Virus record (IMG/VR): IMGVR_UViG_3300022555_002641
Coordinates: 57,683-121,682 of that record
Origin: a virus
DNA: 64,000 nucleotides
Reading direction: 5' to 3' (one strand)
Shown here piece after piece: positions 3,990 through 63,693 of the stretch; position 1 is the stretch's first letter, and the number at the start of each line of letters is the position of its first letter. The notes under the pieces are model-generated. The model had not been told where the DNA came from, made no database searches, and saw nothing but the letters and a program-made list of their open reading frames with translations. Both the position numbers and the translations under genes were made by a program.

Positions 3990-5936
3990 TTAAATTTGTA
4001 TTTTTAATTGAACTGATATATCTCCGCCAGCCATCGTATTTCCAACTTGATCTACATCTATTGATAAAATATCCCCTTCTACAAGTGAAGTTGTATCAAA
4101 ATTTGATTGAGTTCCATAAGTTTGCCCACTTAAAATTTTTAATCTATTGGATTGTGTAATATTCCATATACTCACACCATTTATATTTATATCAAAAATA
4201 TCGTCCGTTCCTTGTGGGCCAGTTCCAGAACTAACATATGCTTTCAATATTGTTCCTATATACGGAACTATTACTCTTGTTTTATTAGTTCCAGTTGTTA
4301 GTGCTGTACCTACTGCTAATAAAAACGTAATATTAGATATACCTAAACCTGAACTACCTGAAGTTCCTGATGATCCAGAATTACCATCTATCCCAGATGT
4401 TCCTGAAGACCCTGATGACCCAGAATTACCATCTATCCCAGATGTTCCTGAAGACCCAGATGTTCCTGAAGACCCAGATGTACCATCGATTCCTGATGTT
4501 CCTGAAGACCCTGATGACCCAGAATTACCATCTATCCCAGATGTTCCTGAAGACCCAGATGTTCCTGAAGACCCAGATGTACCATCGATTCCTGATGTTC
4601 CTGAACTTCCAGATGATCCTGATATACCGTCAATTCCTGAACTTCCCGAACTTCCTGATCCTCCATCAGTCCCAGAACTTCCAGAACTTCCTGAACTTCC
4701 TGTTCCTCCATCAGTTCCAGAACTTCCTGAGCTCCCTGAACTTCCTGACCCATCAGTCCCAGAACTACCTGAACTTCCTGAGCTTCCTGTTCCACCATCA
4801 ACCCCAGAACTACCTGATGTGCCATCAGTTCCTGAACTGCCTGATGAACCTGAACTACCGTCAACACCTGATGAACCTGAACTACCAGAACTTCCTGAAC
4901 TACCAGAACTTCCTGATGTGCCATCAGTTCCTGAACTGCCTGATGATCCTGAACTACCTGAAATTCCAGCACTTCCTGATGTGCCATCAGTTCCTGAACT
5001 GCCTGATGAACCTGAACTACCTGAAATTCCAGAACTACCTGATGTGCCATCAGTTCCTGAACTGCCTGATGATCCTGAACTACCTGAAATTCCAGAACTA
5101 CCTGATGTGCCATCAGTTCCTGAACTGCCTGATGAACCTGAACTACCAGAACTTCCTGATCCATCTGTCCCTGAGCTTCCTGAACTACCTGATGACCCAT
5201 CGGTTCCAGAACTACCTGATGATCCTGAAGAACCAGCTCCACCATCAGCACCAGAAGAACCAGAAGAACCAGAACTACCTGAAGACCCAGTTCCGCCATC
5301 GGTACCCGAAGAACCAGAACTACCTGATGAACCAGTTCTACCATCAGTGCCTGATGACCCAGATGACCCTGAAGAACCATCTGTACCTGATATTCCAGAA
5401 GAACCTGATGTACCATCACTACCCGATACTCCTGAAGACCCAGATGTACCATCACTCCCTGATATTCCTGATGACCCAGATGTACCATCACTACCTGAGC
5501 TTCCATCAACACCAGATGTTCCTGAAGTTCCAAAATTTGCGCCATCAACCCCTGAAGAACCTGACGTACCAGAAGTTCCAGAAGTGCTTGTCTTTCCACT
5601 ATAATTCCAATCTTTATCGGGGGAAAACAGAATTGTTGTTGCCCCACTTGTTATAATACCTGTAGTAATTGTATATTTACCAATACCCAAACCAATAGCA
5701 ACGGCAGTATAATCAGCATCAGTATTTGGAGTTCGACCACCTTGAGTGTTTCCAGTATAATCAAAAGTAAAATAAATTGAAGTCCTTCCAGACACATATC
5801 CAGTAATTGGATTCCCATCAGAATCTTGAATTAAGATAGCATTATTGGTTCCAAAAGAATTTGTAAAATAAATCCAATATTTAGATTGCTGATCATTAGC
5901 AAGATAATTGTTAAATAATATATTACCAGTAGACAT
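3990..5936 (-). CDS. Gly-Ser/Thr collagen-like (G-X-Y) repeat virion fibre protein
   Basis: About 410 aa of GSS/GTS/GTD triplets between globular N- and C-terminal domains; ATG at 5936. Confidence 0.75.
   Translation of the reverse strand: MSTGNILFNNYLANDQQSKYWIYFTNSFGTNNAILIQDSDGNPITGYVSGRTSIYFTFDYTGNTQGGRTPNTDADYTAVAIGLGIGKYTITTGIITSGATTILFSPDKDWNYSGKTSTSGTSGTSGSSGVDGANFGTSGTSGVDGSSGSDGTSGSSGISGSDGTSGSSGVSGSDGTSGSSGISGTDGSSGSSGSSGTDGRTGSSGSSGSSGTDGGTGSSGSSGSSGSSGADGGAGSSGSSGSSGTDGSSGSSGSSGTDGSGSSGSSGSSGSSGTDGTSGSSGISGSSGSSGSSGTDGTSGSSGISGSSGSSGSSGTDGTSGSAGISGSSGSSGSSGTDGTSGSSGSSGSSGSSGSSGVDGSSGSSGSSGTDGTSGSSGVDGGTGSSGSSGSSGTDGSGSSGSSGSSGTDGGTGSSGSSGSSGTDGGSGSSGSSGIDGISGSSGSSGTSGIDGTSGSSGTSGSSGTSGIDGNSGSSGSSGTSGIDGTSGSSGTSGSSGTSGIDGNSGSSGSSGTSGIDGNSGSSGTSGSSGLGISNITFLLAVGTALTTGTNKTRVIVPYIGTILKAYVSSGTGPQGTDDIFDININGVSIWNITQSNRLKILSGQTYGTQSNFDTTSLVEGDILSIDVDQVGNTMAGGDISVQLKIQI
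4345..5590 (-). repeat. Coding tandem 9-bp-unit repeat (G-X-Y triplets)
   Basis: Repeated cctgaacta/ccagatgtt/cctgatgat-type units on the + strand. Confidence 0.9.
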
Positions 5937-10812: not shown

Positions 10813-11700
10813 TTGATATTAGAAGCAAAAGATTTTGAAAATCCTTTCTTTCAAGTGCTTACAACTTCAAATGATATTATTGAAGTTGCCTATATGGACT
10901 TGGAAGAAAGGAATAATTTTAGTCCAATGACTTATCCACAAGAACTTGCTATTACTACAAAAAATAAATATTTTGAATTAAAAGAAATAACAGTATCTAA
11001 ATCAACGGATTTAAAAAATCAATTAAAAAGATTTCTTTTAGAAGAAGCTATAAGTAAAGCTTCGATGCTTGGATTGAAGCCGTATAGTGTTAATTCTTAT
11101 AAGTTAGATATTTTAATGGATGAAATGCCAACTAAATCGAATAATCAATTTGGCAAAGAATCAAAAATGCATTTACATTATGAACATATGATGGGTAAAA
11201 TCAACGGAGCATCTAATGTTATTGCTATGAATTCTCGTATTGGACCTGCACAATATATGATAATAAACAGTAACACTTATAAATTTTTATATCCATATTT
11301 TAGTACGTGCCCTGAATCATTTTCAAGAAAGGGGGATAGAGAGTATGTTTTTAGAACTGGTAACCACCCATTTGGTGATTTACCAGTTTATATACACGAT
11401 AGTATGAAGGATGATCTTATTTTGCTTGGACGAAAAGGTCAACCACAAGATGGTGGAATTAAAATCGCATTCCAAGATAATGGTCAAACTTTTACACCAG
11501 AAATTAGTTTATCGACAATATGGCGAGATCAACAAGTGGATAAGAGAATAAATTGTGTCGATAACAACTCATATGTTAAATTAAAATATTCTATAGTTGA
11601 GGTTGGAAGCAATTTGCATAATTTCTATTATACTATTTATCTTGATCGTGGGTTAGTTGCAAAAAGAAAGGCTAAATTAAATAGATTATCTACATTATAA
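10813..11700 (+). CDS. Divergent T4 gp23/gp24-like (major capsid) paralog or fragment
   Basis: KINGASNVIAMNSRIGPAQYMIINS and PVYIHDSMKDDLILLGRKG..DGGI resemble the C-terminal region of T4-type major capsid proteins (by eye). Confidence 0.5.
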   Translation: MILEAKDFENPFFQVLTTSNDIIEVAYMDLEERNNFSPMTYPQELAITTKNKYFELKEITVSKSTDLKNQLKRFLLEEAISKASMLGLKPYSVNSYKLDILMDEMPTKSNNQFGKESKMHLHYEHMMGKINGASNVIAMNSRIGPAQYMIINSNTYKFLYPYFSTCPESFSRKGDREYVFRTGNHPFGDLPVYIHDSMKDDLILLGRKGQPQDGGIKIAFQDNGQTFTPEISLSTIWRDQQVDKRINCVDNNSYVKLKYSIVEVGSNLHNFYYTIYLDRGLVAKRKAKLNRLSTL

Positions 11701-57088: not shown

Positions 57089-58624
57089 TTATTTCATTTC
57101 CGAACATGTGATCGGTGCTATAGGTTCTATGGCACCGATTATTGCTTTATAGCCATCCTTCCAAATTTCAGGATCAGTAGTTCTTGAAATTGCATTAAAA
57201 GTTTCCATAGCCGCAGCTACAATTGTATTAAACTTATAAGTCCTTTCGTAAACATCAATAGTCTTCTTCCTGATCATGTCAATTCTATTTCTTGCCCAAT
57301 CTTCATCCTTCTGATTAGGAACATGAACTATATCACCGATTTTCTGATAGCCAGCTTTGAATTTATTTATAAATCTACTGCAACCAGATATATTTGAATC
57401 GATCCATTCGAAATCCTGTTCAGGTGGGCCAGCAAACATGATGTACATTCTCACAACATCTGCACCATATTTTTCAACCATCTCATCAGGTGACACCCCA
57501 TTACCAAAATTCTTGGACATTTTTCTACCATCCTTCTTCACCATGCCCTGACAAATTACACGTTTAAACGGCTCGACTGGAGCATCCTCAGGAATATATC
57601 CCATTTTTTTGAACATTCTCCAGAAAAATCTTGCGTAAATCATGTGCCCTGTTGCATGCTCAGCACCGCCAATGTAATAATCAATCGGGAACCAATGTTT
57701 TATTTTATCCCAATCAAATCTGGTACCATCGAAATCTGAAATGTAACGAATGAAATACCAACTGGATTGTACAAAAGTATCCATGGTATCGGTTTCCTTT
57801 TCAGCATTTCCACCACAAACTGGGCACTTAATAAACTTCCATGTTGGATGATTCGCCATTGGATTTCCGCATCCATCGAATTTAACGTTTTCAGGGGCTA
57901 TAACGGGGGTTTGCTCGTTGGGTATGCAACCGCACCTTGGACAGTTGATCATCGGTATAGGAGTCCCCCAATAGCGTTGACGTGAAATACACCAGTCTGA
58001 GAATGGACGCACTTCATCTTTTTCACGAATTCCATTTTTTATGAACTGTTTTTGCTGCTTTGTGATTACTTCAGCCCAGTCACCTTCAATATCTTTTATG
58101 GAGTCATACATATCATCAGCAAACATTGTAGTTTTGAAATAATATTGCACCATTTCTTTCTGCTCAATCTTTGCACCAGATCGCCATCCTTTACCATCAA
58201 TTACTTGATTGGCTGCCATCACGGTCTGATCTACGGGGTCCCAATTCACCATCCCGATCTTCTTCTCAATAAATCCAGCTTTCCAAGCATCAATAAAAAA
58301 TCTTTGCTCATGCTGCCAGTAACTTACATCACAAGTCGAAATTTCACGATCCCAATCAAAATCCATAGCCATAGCTTTCATTTGTGTTCGCATATGGGCG
58401 ATGTTGGCATTTGTCCAATCCCTTGGATGAACATTGTTCTTGATCGCTGCGTTTTCCCCAGGCATGCCGTATGAATCCCAGCCTATTGGGTGGCATACAT
58501 CAAATCCTTTATTTCGCCAGTATCTGGAAATTGAGTCCGATATGGTGTAATTCCGCATGTGCCCCATGTGAATACTTCCAGATGGGTAAGGAGCCATTGG
58601 TGTCACCATTACATTGTTTTTCAT
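57089..58624 (-). CDS. leuS: Minimal leucyl-tRNA synthetase (no CP1 editing domain, no C-terminal domain, zero Leu residues)
   Basis: MAPYPSG, HMGH, GWDSYGMPGENAA, DWCISRQRYWG, ETDTMDTFVQSSWY, GGAEHA..H..YARF, KMSK. Confidence 0.92.
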   Translation of the reverse strand: MKNNVMVTPMAPYPSGSIHMGHMRNYTISDSISRYWRNKGFDVCHPIGWDSYGMPGENAAIKNNVHPRDWTNANIAHMRTQMKAMAMDFDWDREISTCDVSYWQHEQRFFIDAWKAGFIEKKIGMVNWDPVDQTVMAANQVIDGKGWRSGAKIEQKEMVQYYFKTTMFADDMYDSIKDIEGDWAEVITKQQKQFIKNGIREKDEVRPFSDWCISRQRYWGTPIPMINCPRCGCIPNEQTPVIAPENVKFDGCGNPMANHPTWKFIKCPVCGGNAEKETDTMDTFVQSSWYFIRYISDFDGTRFDWDKIKHWFPIDYYIGGAEHATGHMIYARFFWRMFKKMGYIPEDAPVEPFKRVICQGMVKKDGRKMSKNFGNGVSPDEMVEKYGADVVRMYIMFAGPPEQDFEWIDSNISGCSRFINKFKAGYQKIGDIVHVPNQKDEDWARNRIDMIRKKTIDVYERTYKFNTIVAAAMETFNAISRTTDPEIWKDGYKAIIGAIEPIAPITCSEMK

Positions 58625-58646
58625 AACTATCTATTTTTTAAGTTAG

Positions 58647-58719
58647 TAGCCTCGGTGGGATTCGAACCCACGAAATTATGGTCCTAAGCCATACGGATAT
58701 ACCACTCTCCTACGAAGCC
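58647..58719 (-). tRNA. tRNA-Leu(UAG), short variable loop (type I)
   Basis: GGCTTCG/CGAGGCT-A73; anticodon arm TATGG CTTAGGA CCATA; variable ATTTC; T arm GTGGG TTCGAAT CCCAC. Confidence 0.88.
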
Positions 58720-58732
58720 ATTTTTCATATCG

Positions 58733-58817
58733 TGCCCAAGACAGAACTCGAATCTGCATGCTCTTTCAAGCACAACGGTCTGAACGTTGCGGGTCTAACC
58801 AATTTCCCCACTTGGGC
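58733..58817 (-). tRNA. tRNA-Leu(CAG), long variable arm
   Basis: GCCCAAG/CTTGGGC-A; CAACG TTCAGAC CGTTG; variable stem TGCTT GAAA GAGCA. Confidence 0.9.
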
Positions 58818-59559
58818 GTTGTTTTTTTGGCGGAATACCGCCATAACTTTTGATCCATTTTTTTATTGCGTTATCACTAACACCATATTTCTTGCCAGTT
58901 GATAAGTAACTTGTATCATTTACTTCTTTTAAAAGTATTTCCAATGATGGTCTATCTTTAATTTTTCTTTGATTTATTTTATCACATTCATAACATCTAT
59001 TTGATTTTTTTTGAATTTCTTTGCCGCATTCACAAAAGTTATTTTTTGATTTAATATATTTAGTATATTTTTTCTTTCGTAACTCAGATATGCTACTTTT
59101 TATTTTAGAATTGCAATACGTTACAGTTTGACTATGGCAATTTGGACATAAAATTTTCAAATTGGTTATTCTATTGTCTAAATTATCACCATTAATATGA
59201 TCTAAATGTAAAGTTAATGGTTTTCCATTCCATTCATGTATTCCACAATTTTCGCATATATTTTTTTTTAAATTTTTTTCTATTAATTTTCTTCTTAAGC
59301 CTGAGGTGTTTGAATATGTAGAATTCTTTACTAAAATTTCATCAAGATTACATTTTCTCCCAAAATTTTTAAATCTCTTTCCACAATTCCAACCTTGACC
59401 TGTAAAATGTGAAATATCTATTTCATATAATTTAATATATTTCTTTACAGTTTTATAATTTCCACCAATTGGTCTTACATTTAATTTTCTACAAACGTCA
59501 GCTATTGACAACGATGTTTTAGTTATTTCTTCTAAATTGCTTTTCTCATAATTTTTCAT
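58795..59559 (-). CDS. HNH homing endonuclease inserted in the tRNA cluster
   Basis: CENCG...LHLDHINGD..DNRITNL.ILCPNCHSQT; C-terminal HTH-like; stop lies inside tRNA-Leu(CAG). Confidence 0.9.
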   Translation of the reverse strand: MKNYEKSNLEEITKTSLSIADVCRKLNVRPIGGNYKTVKKYIKLYEIDISHFTGQGWNCGKRFKNFGRKCNLDEILVKNSTYSNTSGLRRKLIEKNLKKNICENCGIHEWNGKPLTLHLDHINGDNLDNRITNLKILCPNCHSQTVTYCNSKIKSSISELRKKKYTKYIKSKNNFCECGKEIQKKSNRCYECDKINQRKIKDRPSLEILLKEVNDTSYLSTGKKYGVSDNAIKKWIKSYGGIPPKKQRPSGEIG

Positions 59560-59633
59560 ATTAAACTTTTTTTTGTATATATAAAAGTTTAATAGTCGAA
59601 AAAATAAATTTCAAGCAACTCTTAAAATTTTTG

Positions 59634-59718
59634 TGGTCGAGGAGGGAGTCGAACCCTCATGGCTCTTAACCAACAGGCTCTCAACCTGTTGCGTTCTTAC
59701 CAATTTCGCCACTCGACC
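59634..59718 (-). tRNA. tRNA-Leu(GAG), long variable arm
   Basis: GGTCGAG/CTCGACC-A; ACAGG TTGAGAG CCTGT; T arm GAGGG TTCGACT CCCTC. Confidence 0.9.
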
Positions 59719-59728
59719 TTTTTATTTG

Positions 59729-59802
59729 TACTCCCACACGGACTCGAACCGAGATATAATCTGTTTAAGAGATTAATGACTAACCAATTGCATCATGGGA
59801 GC
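59729..59802 (-). tRNA. tRNA-Leu(UAA), short variable loop (type I)
   Basis: GCTCCCA/TGGGAGT-A; AATCT CTTAAAC AGATT; variable ATAT; T arm CTCGG TTCGAGT CCGTG (one mismatch). Confidence 0.82.
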
Positions 59803-59810
59803 AATTTTTG

Positions 59811-59892
59811 TGCCGCTGAACGGACTCGAACCGATACATCTTCCGATATGAGTTTCTTAGGCTCACGTGGCTACCAATTACACCACAGCGGC
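59811..59892 (-). tRNA. tRNA-Leu(AAG), long variable arm
   Basis: GCCGCTG/CAGCGGC-A; TGAGC CTAAGAA ACTCA (C31.A39 mismatch); variable TATC GGAA GATG. Confidence 0.82.
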
Positions 59893-59898
59893 AATTTG

Positions 59899-59970
59899 TA
59901 CTCTCACTCAGACTCGAACTGAGACACCATCCTTTTGAGGGATGTACGACTACCATTACGTCATGAGAGC
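59899..59970 (-). tRNA. tRNA-Leu(CAA), short variable loop (type I)
   Basis: GCTCTCA/TGAGAGT-A; CATCC CTCAAAA GGATG; variable GTGT; T arm CTCAG TTCGAGT CTGAG. Confidence 0.88.
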
Positions 59971-59978
59971 AAAAAATG

Positions 59979-60064
59979 TAGCGAGTGTGGGGGTCGAACC
60001 CACAAGAGCACAGAGGCTCACGGACTTTTAAGGACCGCATGTTTGCCAGTTTCATCAACTCGCC
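59979..60064 (-). tRNA. tRNA-Leu(UAA), long variable arm
   Basis: GGCGAGT/ACTCGCT-A; CGGTC CTTAAAA GTCCG; variable GAGC...GCTC; T arm GTGGG TTCGACC CCCAC. Confidence 0.88.
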
Positions 60065-60092
60065 ATTTTTAAATATTTCAAAGAACACAAAC

Positions 60093-60125
60093 AAAAAACC
60101 CCCAGTCTTTCGACTGGGGGTTTTT
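60093..60125 (-). terminator. Attenuator terminator of the Leu operon
   Basis: Minus strand AAAAACCCCCAGTC-GAAA-GACTGGGGGTTTTTT, 28 nt upstream of the first tRNA. Confidence 0.9.
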
Positions 60126-60150
60126 CATGATAGGGTTAAAGGTAACCACT

Positions 60151-60240
60151 TTAACACATCTGTATAACTCTCCCAGTCCTGTTGCTTTGTAACAATAGGT
60201 TGTTGAGGAGAAGTACCAGTGTATTAATGTTGTTTTTCAT
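60151..60240 (-). CDS. Leu-sensing leader peptide MKNNINTLVLLLNNLLLQSNRTGRVIQMC
   Basis: Leu codons CTG,CTT,CTC,CTC,CTA,TTG,TTA (all six) in codons 8-17; GACTGGG (60178-60172) is complementary to the terminator 5-prime arm. Confidence 0.88.
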   Translation of the reverse strand: MKNNINTLVLLLNNLLLQSNRTGRVIQMC

Positions 60241-60245
60241 AATGC

Positions 60246-60273
60246 TATATATTAATATTTTTTATCAAAGTTT
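60246..60273 (-). promoter_or_regulatory. Putative phage promoter of the Leu operon (AAACTTT...AATATATA)
   Basis: Same motifs recur upstream of other genes in the window; ends 5 nt before the leader ATG. Confidence 0.55.
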
Positions 60274-60297
60274 GCTATTTTTGAAAATTTATTTTAA

Positions 60298-61593: not shown

Positions 61594-61804
61594 ATATTTT
61601 AAATTTAGTTTGTTTAATAAATAATTGAATATAAGGAAATGATAGGCATATGCACATTCCAACAAGCCCACCACCTAACATAGAAAAAAAATATGTAGAA
61701 AGTGACCAAAATGTTACTGGTAAAATATCGGCTGATAGCAATGAACATAATAACCCGAACAATGTAAAAAACACTATAATTACTCCGTAGATAAAATTTT
61801 TCAT
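61580..61804 (-). CDS. Small membrane protein
   Basis: Two TM helices. Confidence 0.6.
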   Translation of the reverse strand: MKNFIYGVIIVFFTLFGLLCSLLSADILPVTFWSLSTYFFSMLGGGLVGMCICLSFPYIQLFIKQTKFKIYENR

Positions 61805-61898
61805 AGTGTCAATTTTTTAATAAGTTCTTCAAAAGTTCCTTCCCAAACTGGGGTGCTATTTTTTGGATTGCAAAATGAATAAATCCTCCAGAACCGTT

Positions 61899-62102
61899 TC
61901 ATGATTTAAATATTTTGTTTAATTTATTTTTTCGTTCTTCTTTTAATTTTTCACACCACGGTGGGGCGGGGGATTTTTTGGTTCGTAATGCATAAGTTCC
62001 AACAAATTTTTCTCTACAATATAATTCAAATGTCCAGTCGCCATTTGGAGTAATCCGTTCACTCGGTACCCAACTATGCAATTTACATTTTTCGCAATCC
62101 AT
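61899..62102 (-). CDS. Small Cys-rich protein
   Basis: CxxC...C...PPWC; tag ERKNKLNKI. Confidence 0.65.
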   Translation of the reverse strand: MDCEKCKLHSWVPSERITPNGDWTFELYCREKFVGTYALRTKKSPAPPWCEKLKEERKNKLNKIFKS

Positions 62103-63654
62103 TGATTCTTGTATATTGTTGTAATCGTGAAACAAATTCATCCCTACCAATAATTTCTGCGATATCAGTTACGTGCGGCCCTCGATTGGCTCCAACTACA
62201 AGTAATCTCAATGGTGCCAATAACCTACCAGACTGCATATTAGCAGTGGCAAGAAAATTATCGATAAAAGATTGTAGTGATTCTTTATTGAATTCTTTCA
62301 ATGTTGTAAGTTGACTCAAAAACAAACTGATTACAAACCCACTATCCATCTTCCAAATTTTATCGATCATTTCTTGTTCATATGTTTGTGGAGAAAAGAA
62401 GAAGAAATCAGATTCTTTCCATAAGTCTGGTAGCAGTACAACTCTTTCACGAATAAGATGAACTATTTTCAAAAGGAATTCATTTTCATCAGTTGGTGAA
62501 TTGAAAGGTGTAAGAGTATTAATAGCCATCCCATGTTCGCCAATACATCCATGATCGCCTAATTGCCCAGATAAATAATAAGCTAATTCCTCATCGGTTT
62601 TATTAAGAAGATGTTTTTGATTAAACCATAACGCTTTCTTTGGATCGAATCGGCAATCAGCCTTAACAATACGATCTAATGAGAAAATATCGATAAGTTC
62701 TTGCATGGTGTATAATTCCTGAGTTGTTCCAGAATTCCATCCAAGCAGCGCAAGTGTATTAACTACAGCTTCTGGAAGATATCCTCGTTCTGAGCAACCC
62801 AAATATTTTTCACCAGTTTGCGGATCAATCCATGGGAGCATGTACGCTGGGAATCCAAATTTTTCACCATCCCTTTTATTGAATTTCCCCTGACCTTCGG
62901 GTTTAAGAATCAATGGAAGATGTGCGAAAACAGGATGTTCCCACCCCATAAGTTTATAAAGTAAAATATGAATTGGGGTTGATGGTAACCATTCATTTCC
63001 ACGTATTACATGAGAAATTTGCATCAAATGATCATCAACAATATTTGCAAAATGATATGTTGGAAACCCGTCAGATTTATATAGGATTTTATCGTCCAAC
63101 GTTGAAGAATTCCATGATACTTCCCCTGCGATTTCATCAGTGAATGTAATTATTTCATTTTCTGGAACTTTAAGACGAAATACACAATCGGCACCACTTT
63201 CAATAAGTTTATCAACTTCTTTTTGAGATAATGTCAAACTGTTTTTGAATTGCATTCGGTTGGCTGCCGAATATTTGAAATGCTCATTTTCTTCACGAAG
63301 CTTAGCTAATTCTTTTGGGGTATCGAATGCAATATAAGCACCACCCTTCTTATAGAGTTCCAAGATATTACTTGTGTACCAAACGCCTCGTTCCGATTGC
63401 CTGTACGGCCCGTATGCACCCTTACCGATAGCAGGGCTTTCATCAAATTTTATTCCAACCCAATTCAAAGAATCGATTATATATTTTTCGGCATTAGGCA
63501 CCAATCTTTCCTGATCAGTATCTTCAATTCTCAAAATGATATCACCACCATTCTTTTTAGCAAAAAGGTAGTTGAACAGGGCTGTTCTAACTCCACCAAT
63601 GTGAAGCGGTCCTGTTGGGCTTGGGGCGAATCTTACTCGTACTTTATTAATCAT
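62083..63654 (-). CDS. gltX: Glutamyl-tRNA synthetase
   Basis: VRVRFAPSPTGPLHIGG, RIEDTD, GPYRQSER, PTYHFANIVDDH, HVIRG.EW, KFNKR (KMSKS-like). Confidence 0.96.
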   Translation of the reverse strand: MINKVRVRFAPSPTGPLHIGGVRTALFNYLFAKKNGGDIILRIEDTDQERLVPNAEKYIIDSLNWVGIKFDESPAIGKGAYGPYRQSERGVWYTSNILELYKKGGAYIAFDTPKELAKLREENEHFKYSAANRMQFKNSLTLSQKEVDKLIESGADCVFRLKVPENEIITFTDEIAGEVSWNSSTLDDKILYKSDGFPTYHFANIVDDHLMQISHVIRGNEWLPSTPIHILLYKLMGWEHPVFAHLPLILKPEGQGKFNKRDGEKFGFPAYMLPWIDPQTGEKYLGCSERGYLPEAVVNTLALLGWNSGTTQELYTMQELIDIFSLDRIVKADCRFDPKKALWFNQKHLLNKTDEELAYYLSGQLGDHGCIGEHGMAINTLTPFNSPTDENEFLLKIVHLIRERVVLLPDLWKESDFFFFSPQTYEQEMIDKIWKMDSGFVISLFLSQLTTLKEFNKESLQSFIDNFLATANMQSGRLLAPLRLLVVGANRGPHVTDIAEIIGRDEFVSRLQQYTRINGLRKM

Positions 63655-63693
63655 CTTCTCCAACACTTGAAAAAATTACTATTCCACCCATAA

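Follow-up and report, generated by a model that had tools for sequence, protein, structure and literature searches.

The stretch of DNA analysed here, the window, is the right-hand 64 kb of the linear virus contig G000 (IMG/VR record IMGVR_UViG_3300022555_002641; 121,682 bp; CheckV completeness 17%). From 60240 down to 57089, its minus strand carries a short leader open reading frame (ORF), a hairpin with a T tract, five tRNA-Leu genes, an HNH-like ORF, two further tRNA-Leu genes and a gene for a leucyl-tRNA synthetase (LeuRS) that contains no leucine (Table 1). We consider it probable that these genes form a phage operon gated by the supply of charged tRNA-Leu, whose key product can be made without any charged tRNA-Leu. 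The layout was first described in a reading of the letters alone (the original prediction), and our analysis confirms it. The wider interpretation proposed there is borne out in part: the attenuator and the conservation of the leucine-free enzyme find support, while a clear promoter, a conserved anticodon set and similar cassettes for other residues do not.

The locus is also found in metagenome contigs from four runs of three studies (X3, X4, X6 and X7). Among these freshwater and lake contigs, some match the window without any difference over the LeuRS gene, the two tRNAs next to it and a portion of the endonuclease gene (X3, X4, X6), and identical contigs also span the tRNA array and the leader (X4, X6; X7 piecewise).

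Table 1. Features of the leucine locus (window positions) and leaders of the four related loci with DNA context
Feature	Position	Strand	Description	Evidence
Intergenic stretch upstream of leader	60241..60297	minus	promoter not established	
Leader ORF	60151-60240	minus	29 codons, peptide MKNNINTLVLLLNNLLLQSNRTGRVIQMC	homologous leaders in L161 and L001
Region 1	60190..60219	minus	Leu-codon block, codons 8-17	pairs with region 2 without ribosome (minimum free energy and truncated folds)
Region 2	60166..60178	minus	putative antiterminator strand	GACTGGG (60172-60178) exactly repeats a segment of the terminator 3' arm
Regions 3 and 4	60085..60128	minus	intrinsic terminator: 17-bp stem, GAAA loop, T tract	folds and terminator scan
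tRNA-Leu(UAA)	59978..60064	minus	87 nt, long variable arm, A73	ARAGORN, Rfam
tRNA-Leu(CAA)	59898..59970	minus	73 nt, short variable loop, A73	ARAGORN, Rfam
tRNA-Leu(AAG)	59810..59892	minus	83 nt, long variable arm, A73	ARAGORN, Rfam
tRNA-Leu(UAA)	59728..59802	minus	75 nt, short variable loop, A73	ARAGORN, Rfam
tRNA-Leu(GAG)	59633..59718	minus	86 nt, long variable arm, A73	ARAGORN, Rfam
Probable HNH homing endonuclease	58795..59559	minus	254 aa, 20 Leu	weak Pfam hits, motif by eye
tRNA-Leu(CAG)	58732..58817	minus	86 nt, long variable arm, A73	ARAGORN, Rfam
tRNA-Leu(UAG)	58646..58719	minus	74 nt, short variable loop, A73	ARAGORN, Rfam
Leu-free minimal LeuRS	57089..58624	minus	511 aa	ORF, family hidden Markov models, structure alignment, AlphaFold model
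L161 leader			MNNILHINLLNSLCLLGIKLIG; 7 Leu codons, all six kinds	
L001 leader			MNNILHNNLLNLLLLLGIIGLGVLC; 10 Leu codons, five kinds	
L002 leader			MKFISTYSLLLSALRKC; 4 Leu codons, three kinds; directly before LeuRS, no tRNAs	
L003 leaders, two			one ahead of its tRNAs, the other directly before LeuRS	

A leucyl-tRNA synthetase without leucine

None of the 511 amino acids (aa) of the LeuRS is leucine, as had been predicted (binomial P 3.7e-20 at the genome's 8.4% Leu). The mean for the contig's ORFs of 100 aa or more is 8.6% Leu, and the lowest value after the LeuRS is 2.2%. The protein passes the cut-off of the NCBIfam equivalog leuS_bact (TIGR00396; 552.2 versus 548.4 bits), matches PF00133 (E 7.2e-44) and matches a solved bacterial LeuRS with E 5.5e-136, with the HMGH and KMSK regions aligned. 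Both of these class I core signatures are present and the zinc-ribbon region is retained. Its AlphaFold model has a mean predicted local distance difference test (pLDDT) score of 88.8 and a predicted template modelling (pTM) score of 0.86. Residues 9-195, 206-364 and 362-507 align to residues 40-225, 428-586 and 629-788 of the 877-residue LeuRS 7nua. The 7nua stretches in between, including ∼200 aa of the CP1 editing domain, are unmatched, as are the last ∼90 residues, so the phage enzyme lacks the CP1 editing domain, the leucine-specific domain and the C-terminal domain. Judged from its signatures and predicted fold, the enzyme looks functional.

The absence of leucine extends across a clade. 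A search of 5.8 billion proteins returned the short relatives P0001-P0047, which are 57–98% identical to the window LeuRS, and 73 further rows. Forty-one of the 47 short relatives contain no leucine, five contain one and one contains two. The 45 full-length clade members hold five leucines among 24,605 residues, and 40 of them hold none. In a quick tree the clade is monophyletic (Shimodaira-Hasegawa-like approximate likelihood-ratio support, 100), with internal branches of up to 0.75 changes per site. Its members carry mostly I, M, F or V at 33 alignment columns where at least 70% of 40 bacterial LeuRS sequences have leucine. Among the 73 further rows, 71 are full-length proteins of 777–871 aa with 52–78 leucines each; of the two fragments, P0096 (342 aa) has zero and P0049 (336 aa) eight. 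A single substitution could create a Leu codon at 228 of the 511 codons of the window gene, so selection must be keeping leucine out. Three loci of the clade are present in IMG/VR, and among the matches that a metagenome scan listed there was no clade member; those listed were other LeuRS types of at most 46% identity.

In the two genomes scanned, no second protein of this kind accompanies the LeuRS. The suggestion that cassettes for other amino acids might lie elsewhere in the genome did not hold up in a scan for near-absence of any residue: among ORFs of at least 150 aa (86 in the contig and 528 in a 735-kb relative), only the LeuRS lacks a common residue, and the contig gave no other hit of normal complexity. 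Without filtering, huge repetitive virion proteins make up most of the hits, together with antisense ORFs. An ORF at window 3990-5936 (minus strand; G000 61672-63618) encodes 648 aa that include just 1 Glu, 8 Lys and 15 Leu; the product is probably a virion protein, and its repeat-rich surroundings also give rise to antisense ORFs of low complexity. We saw no leucine-poor regulon in the contig. A glutamyl-tRNA synthetase (GluRS; 62083-63666, minus strand; PF00749, E 2.2e-86) has an ordinary composition, with 7.4% Glu and 60 Leu, and no Glu-codon leader was seen by eye upstream of it. The genes adjoining the operon encode an Exo_endo_phos protein and a metallophosphatase protein.

Leader, terminator and tRNA-Leu array

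The leader ORF contains seven Leu codons, in the order CTG CTT CTC CTC CTA TTG TTA. All six kinds are thus represented, in agreement with the original prediction. Downstream, the terminator stem (60128-60091) has 17 pairs, seven of them G-C, is followed by the T tract and lies ∼29 nt ahead of the first tRNA. The leader region is more stable than its shuffles (z = −5.4). To model attenuation we folded the transcript truncated before the terminator 3' arm, with an assumed ribosome footprint that covers the A site and 12 nt beyond it. In the absence of a ribosome, region 2 is taken up by the Leu-codon block and the terminator 5' arm stays free (0 of 14 nt sequestered). When a ribosome is placed on any of the seven Leu codons, region 2 (GGACUGGGAG...) pairs with 10–11 of the 14 nt of the terminator 5' arm; placed at the stop codon, it leaves 5 of 14 paired. 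The antiterminator that had been proposed for this leader is recovered in these constrained folds. The same contrast between stall and stop appears in the folds of the related loci L161, L001, L002 and L003b. In the window, L161 and L001, 7–9 nt at leader codon 20-21 are identical to a stretch of the terminator 3' arm, an outcome reached by 23 (7 nt), 12 and 11 of 2000 shuffles, respectively. The copy changes together with the terminator among these three loci (GACTGGG versus GATTGGGT). The folding analysis thus supports, in silico, a classical ribosome-mediated attenuator with the 1:2, 2:3 and 3:4 pairing scheme. Neither a leader family of Rfam, even at E up to 1, nor the T-box gave a match; the sole leader-type Rfam hit is a Thr_leader on the opposite strand, with 23 bits against a gathering threshold of 55.

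Five loci with DNA context are available: the window, L161 (LR756501.1, the 735-kb uncultured phage, with a LeuRS 81.5% identical to that of the window), L001, L002 and L003. All five have a leader with a run of Leu codons and a terminator upstream of a leucine-free LeuRS, so the leader is kept despite divergence. The tRNA array and the endonuclease vary among these relatives, and the conserved core, as far as the compared sequences go, is therefore the leader-attenuator together with the leucine-free LeuRS. Leu-run leader ORFs also occur on other huge-phage contigs, in L010 (5867-5914, MITTMNTNLLLLADS), L017 (5875-5916, MKQNAKSLLLLLL) and L056 (5858-5905, MKQIFVNTLLLLSLF), ∼85–100 nt upstream of a different, leucine-containing mini-LeuRS of ∼420 aa (4.5–5% Leu; the ORF is cut in L056). 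Attenuation of phage LeuRS genes would thus be wider than the leucine-free clade.

The seven tRNAs score 44.7–62.4 bits with the Rfam tRNA model (gathering threshold 29). ARAGORN calls all seven as Leu, on the minus strand, and the whole contig has no others, which extends the earlier statement that every tRNA in the window is a Leu tRNA. The array does contain all six anticodons, UAA twice and CAA, AAG, GAG, CAG and UAG once each, so that every Leu codon has a Watson-Crick-matched anticodon, even CTC and CTA, which account for just 3.8% and 5.1% of the contig's Leu codons. This full set is particular to the window genome: there are four different anticodons in each of L161 and L001 and fewer in L003, and L002 has no tRNA within 6 kb. 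The spacing between the last tRNA and the LeuRS, given before as 22 nt, is 21 nt from the ARAGORN end to the ATG. All seven tRNAs have A73, the discriminator that serves as a tRNA-Leu identity element, and none encodes CCA. Four have the long variable arm of class II tRNAs, and three (CAA, UAA and UAG) have a 4–5-nt loop; similar short tRNA-Leu recur in L161, L001 and L003. The short-armed forms may derive from class I tRNAs by anticodon change: at L003 5187-5260 there is a gene called as tRNA-Arg(UCU) whose acceptor stem resembles, by eye, the short tRNA-Leu(UAG) of L001 and L161. L161 (6516-6600) and L001 (∼5450-5570) share a tRNA-like element between the terminator and the first tRNA-Leu, which scores 38.5 bits with the Rfam tRNA model in L161, is missed by ARAGORN there and is absent from the window. 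L001 also has a GOLLD RNA (11101-11564; 163.4 bits, gathering threshold 150) among tRNA genes downstream of its LeuRS locus.

The ORF that interrupts the array had been called an HNH gene. An H-N-H/CxxC motif can be seen by eye in its translation, but both Pfam matches fall below their gathering cut-offs (HNH_3, 19.1 versus 24.8 bits; HNH, 17.9 versus 21.4 bits). L161 has an endonuclease of another kind in another place, a GIY-YIG/NUMOD gene that follows the last tRNA and precedes the LeuRS. On this comparison the endonucleases appear to be invaders, and the HNH gene an insertion in the array and not a working part of the module. The metagenome contigs of all four runs break or thin within this gene (59250-59440), with many loose ends, as would fit a mobile gene present in multiple copies.

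The contig is a fragment of a huge lake-water phage; the close LeuRS of LR756501.1 agrees with its phage origin and with a host that is probably a member of the Bacteroidota. Al-Shayeb et al. predict a Bacteroidetes host for their own genomes larger than 634 kb (PMC7162821). RNA ligases and CCA-adding-type enzymes are encoded in the lineage as well. All four records searched encode a CCA-adding-type nucleotidyltransferase; in the present contig it lies ∼5.4 kb before the window start (G000:C1:51842-52276, plus strand; PF01743). Ligases of the RtcB family (two genes) and one similar to T4 Rnl1 are present in the 735-kb relative, and an Rnl1-like ligase in the record G002. As circumstantial evidence, the ligases and CCA-adding enzymes favour tRNA damage as a pressure on the lineage, with tRNA-Leu not singled out.

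Proposed mechanism and alternative explanations

We propose a rescue circuit. Transcription would start upstream of 60240, and a ribosome would translate the 29-codon leader. With plentiful Leu-tRNA-Leu, the ribosome would reach the stop codon, the terminator would form and transcription would end before the tRNA genes. If any of the six Leu codons could not be decoded, the ribosome would stall in codons 8-17, freeing region 2 to pair with the terminator 5' arm, and RNA polymerase would continue into the seven tRNA-Leu genes and the LeuRS gene. The LeuRS mRNA, free of Leu codons, could be translated to full length during the block, and the new enzyme would charge the new tRNAs and restore leucine decoding. 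Selection against even single Leu codons over deep divergence suggests a near-total loss of leucine decoding and not a mild scarcity. The loss might be caused by host defences or toxins that act on tRNA, or the phage itself might do the damage.

Several observations weigh against this account. The endonuclease ORF, 765 nt with 20 Leu codons, parts the first five tRNAs from the last two and the LeuRS, which weakens the earlier description of the operon as self-contained, and ribosomes stalled within it could cause polarity. Because sigma-70-like sites lie within and ahead of the endonuclease ORF, the LeuRS may be transcribed apart from the attenuator. The promoter-like motif claimed for the leader found no clear support: the nearest sigma-70-like site (60268-60239), the only one in the upstream intergenic stretch, runs into the leader ATG, and the promoter scan found sites of this type about as often as in shuffles (19 versus 14.3 ± 3.7). 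By eye there is a partial match, AAACTTTG, upstream of the leader to the Bacteroidota −7 motif. The six-codon leader is by itself only moderately unlikely, since the probability of all six codons among seven leucines is ∼0.01 under the genome's codon usage and the feature is shared by 2 of the contig's 1056 short ORFs and by 23 of 4665 from the 735-kb relative. The copy of the terminator arm is not significant in L002, L003a and L003b (1900, 928 and 1937 of 2000 shuffles). In L003a the antiterminator is kept even with the ribosome at the stop codon (11 of 12), and the ribosome-free folds of L161 and L001 already show it. The full-length minimum free energy fold always keeps the terminator, even with a masked ribosome, so antitermination depends on a kinetic, co-transcriptional argument and on the assumed footprint. 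Eradication of leucine is also not universal, because P0049, a 336-aa CP1-less fragment with 70% identity, has 8 leucines at sites that are M, I or F in the window LeuRS; this protein may represent an intermediate stage or a reversion. Finally, a shortage of free leucine would be little helped by extra LeuRS and tRNA.

An unlikely alternative is that the attenuator tunes LeuRS and tRNA-Leu to a heavy leucine demand, with no attack on tRNA-Leu, and that leucine avoidance merely sharpens the response. The attenuator of pheST in E. coli tunes supply in this way. Leucine is among the commonest residues of these phages (8.4% in the contig and 7.5% in the 735-kb relative), and the leaders in L010, L017 and L056 precede synthetases that keep their leucine. 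Furthermore, a cognate bias is known as a statistical trend in biosynthetic enzymes (PMC4209129). Yet mild scarcity would barely penalise one or two Leu codons, and the great majority of full-length clade members have none; the adjoining GluRS shows no such bias; and six matched anticodons exceed what compensation for codon usage would ask for, considering the rarity of CTC and CTA.

The same total eradication, which implies near-zero leucine decoding, would also suit a host takeover, in which the phage disables host tRNA-Leu or host LeuRS and substitutes a partly private pair. This pair would consist of the short-armed tRNA-Leu and a LeuRS without the C-terminal domain that binds the tRNA elbow, and the leucine-free gene would permit start-up. 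The missing domain, the three window tRNAs without a long arm, their short counterparts in L161, L001 and L003, and the wobble-free tRNA set all agree with it. However, the window yielded no candidate for a nuclease of tRNA-Leu or an inhibitor of LeuRS, the other four tRNAs are ordinary long-armed tRNA-Leu, and the remaining phage proteins, with ∼8% Leu, would suffer from the phage's own action until the rescue worked. Overall we regard a takeover of this kind as quite improbable.

Loss of editing offers a further explanation. An editing-deficient LeuRS would place Ile, Met or norvaline at Leu codons, and a leucine-free enzyme would be immune to its own errors, with the leader and terminator incidental. 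The missing CP1 domain of the window enzyme fits this idea. Three clade members of 645-647 aa (P0035, P0037 and P0039), however, are recorded with the editing-domain family PF13603 (80.1 bits in a rescan of P0039) and still contain no leucine; in the quick tree they are nested within the clade, not basal. Conversely, 57 other phage mini-LeuRS loci (L004-L060; 30–37% identity), with ORFs mostly of ∼405–530 aa and too short for CP1, retain 4.1–12.4% Leu. Editing loss therefore fails to explain the eradication, and it leaves the conserved Leu leaders unexplained; we give self-protection very little credence. A constitutive codon-compensation cassette, with a spurious short ORF and a hairpin that ends the upstream gene, is equally hard to credit: chance six-codon ORFs and the lack of an Rfam leader match speak for it, but Leu-run leaders recur in all five diverged loci, the antiterminator strand co-varies with the terminator in three, and an unregulated terminator directly before same-strand tRNA genes would silence them.

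The rescue circuit can be stated in a bolder form, which we put forward as speculation and think unlikely to hold in full. Here a huge-phage lineage has taken over one whole decoding ‘letter’ of its host: leucine decoding collapses, either through a host defence aimed at tRNA-Leu (e.g., long-armed class II tRNAs) or through the phage's own action, and is rebuilt from a self-starting kit. The kit would comprise a sensor that reads all Leu codons, a tRNA set that needs no wobble and whose short-armed tRNA-Leu would evade nucleases, and a synthetase translatable at zero Leu-tRNA. If true, this would be the first natural case of an aminoacyl-tRNA synthetase that evolution has freed from the circle in which translation depends on what it makes.

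Even the more modest form suggests a design principle, in which an enzyme of translation contains none of the amino acid that it handles and is controlled by a sensor for the decoding of that amino acid. The loop by which LeuRS is needed to make LeuRS would be cut by the leucine-free gene and its sensor. The locus points to leucine decoding as a battleground between phage and host, a question open to simple reporters and cell-free systems. A leucine-free LeuRS of 511 aa could also help to bootstrap reconstituted translation, to study tRNA-Leu recognition without a C-terminal domain and, possibly, to build orthogonal pairs. Editing-site inhibitors of LeuRS act at the CP1 site, and a CP1-less enzyme would lack that target.

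Comparison with known systems

The leader most resembles the leu leader (Rfam Leu_leader) and the pheM leader of pheST, in that a short ORF with clustered cognate codons precedes an intrinsic terminator and a mutually exclusive antiterminator. The pheM leader is a precedent for an aminoacyl-tRNA synthetase under leader-peptide attenuation. The phage element differs from both in lying on a phage genome, in its targets, which are tRNA genes and a synthetase instead of biosynthetic genes, in a regulated enzyme that lacks the sensed amino acid, and in having no Rfam leader match. The leuL leader uses a run of one or two kinds of Leu codon, whereas the phage leader samples all six. In Firmicutes, leuS is under T-box control, in which uncharged tRNA is sensed by direct RNA-RNA contacts. 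There, as proposed here, a shortage of charged tRNA-Leu induces LeuRS by antitermination, but in the phage a translating ribosome would do the sensing, and the search for a T-box gave no match.

The enzyme itself has a structural counterpart in PDB 3ZIU, a CP1-less LeuRS of bacterial type that aligns to it in one continuous stretch (3ziu_A; query 7-479, E 1.8e-83). The phage LeuRS is shorter (511 versus 637 aa) and has no leucine; compared with 7nua, it also lacks the leucine-specific and C-terminal domains. The other mini-LeuRS enzymes of huge phages (∼420 aa, L004-L060) are likewise CP1-less and in L010, L017 and L056 likewise preceded by leaders, but they are only distantly related to the window LeuRS and keep their leucine.

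Proteins of sulfur-starved cyanobacteria are depleted in sulfur. These proteins and the biosynthetic enzymes with cognate bias (PMC4209129) share a logic with the phage LeuRS, as a protein needed in scarcity avoids the scarce resource in its own composition. In those cases the effect is statistical or concerns rare residues, whereas here a common residue is removed entirely from a 511-aa enzyme and across a clade. Two papers describe phage tRNAs as a counter-defence against tRNA-cleaving systems (PMC10264068, PMC11464382), and the window tRNAs could similarly replace destroyed host tRNAs. The window array differs in being devoted to one amino acid, in its coupling to the synthetase for that amino acid and in the proposed sensor, which would respond to the same deficit that the array makes good.

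In the literature searched, with supplements outside the search, neither a LeuRS devoid of leucine nor a leader-peptide attenuator placed before tRNA genes turned up. The word ‘leucine’ does not occur in the main text of PMC7162821, although its supplementary tRNA-synthetase tables may name the gene. Attenuators, phage tRNAs, phage aminoacyl-tRNA synthetases and editing-less LeuRS enzymes are all of known kinds; as far as we can tell, their combination and the full removal of the cognate residue are new.

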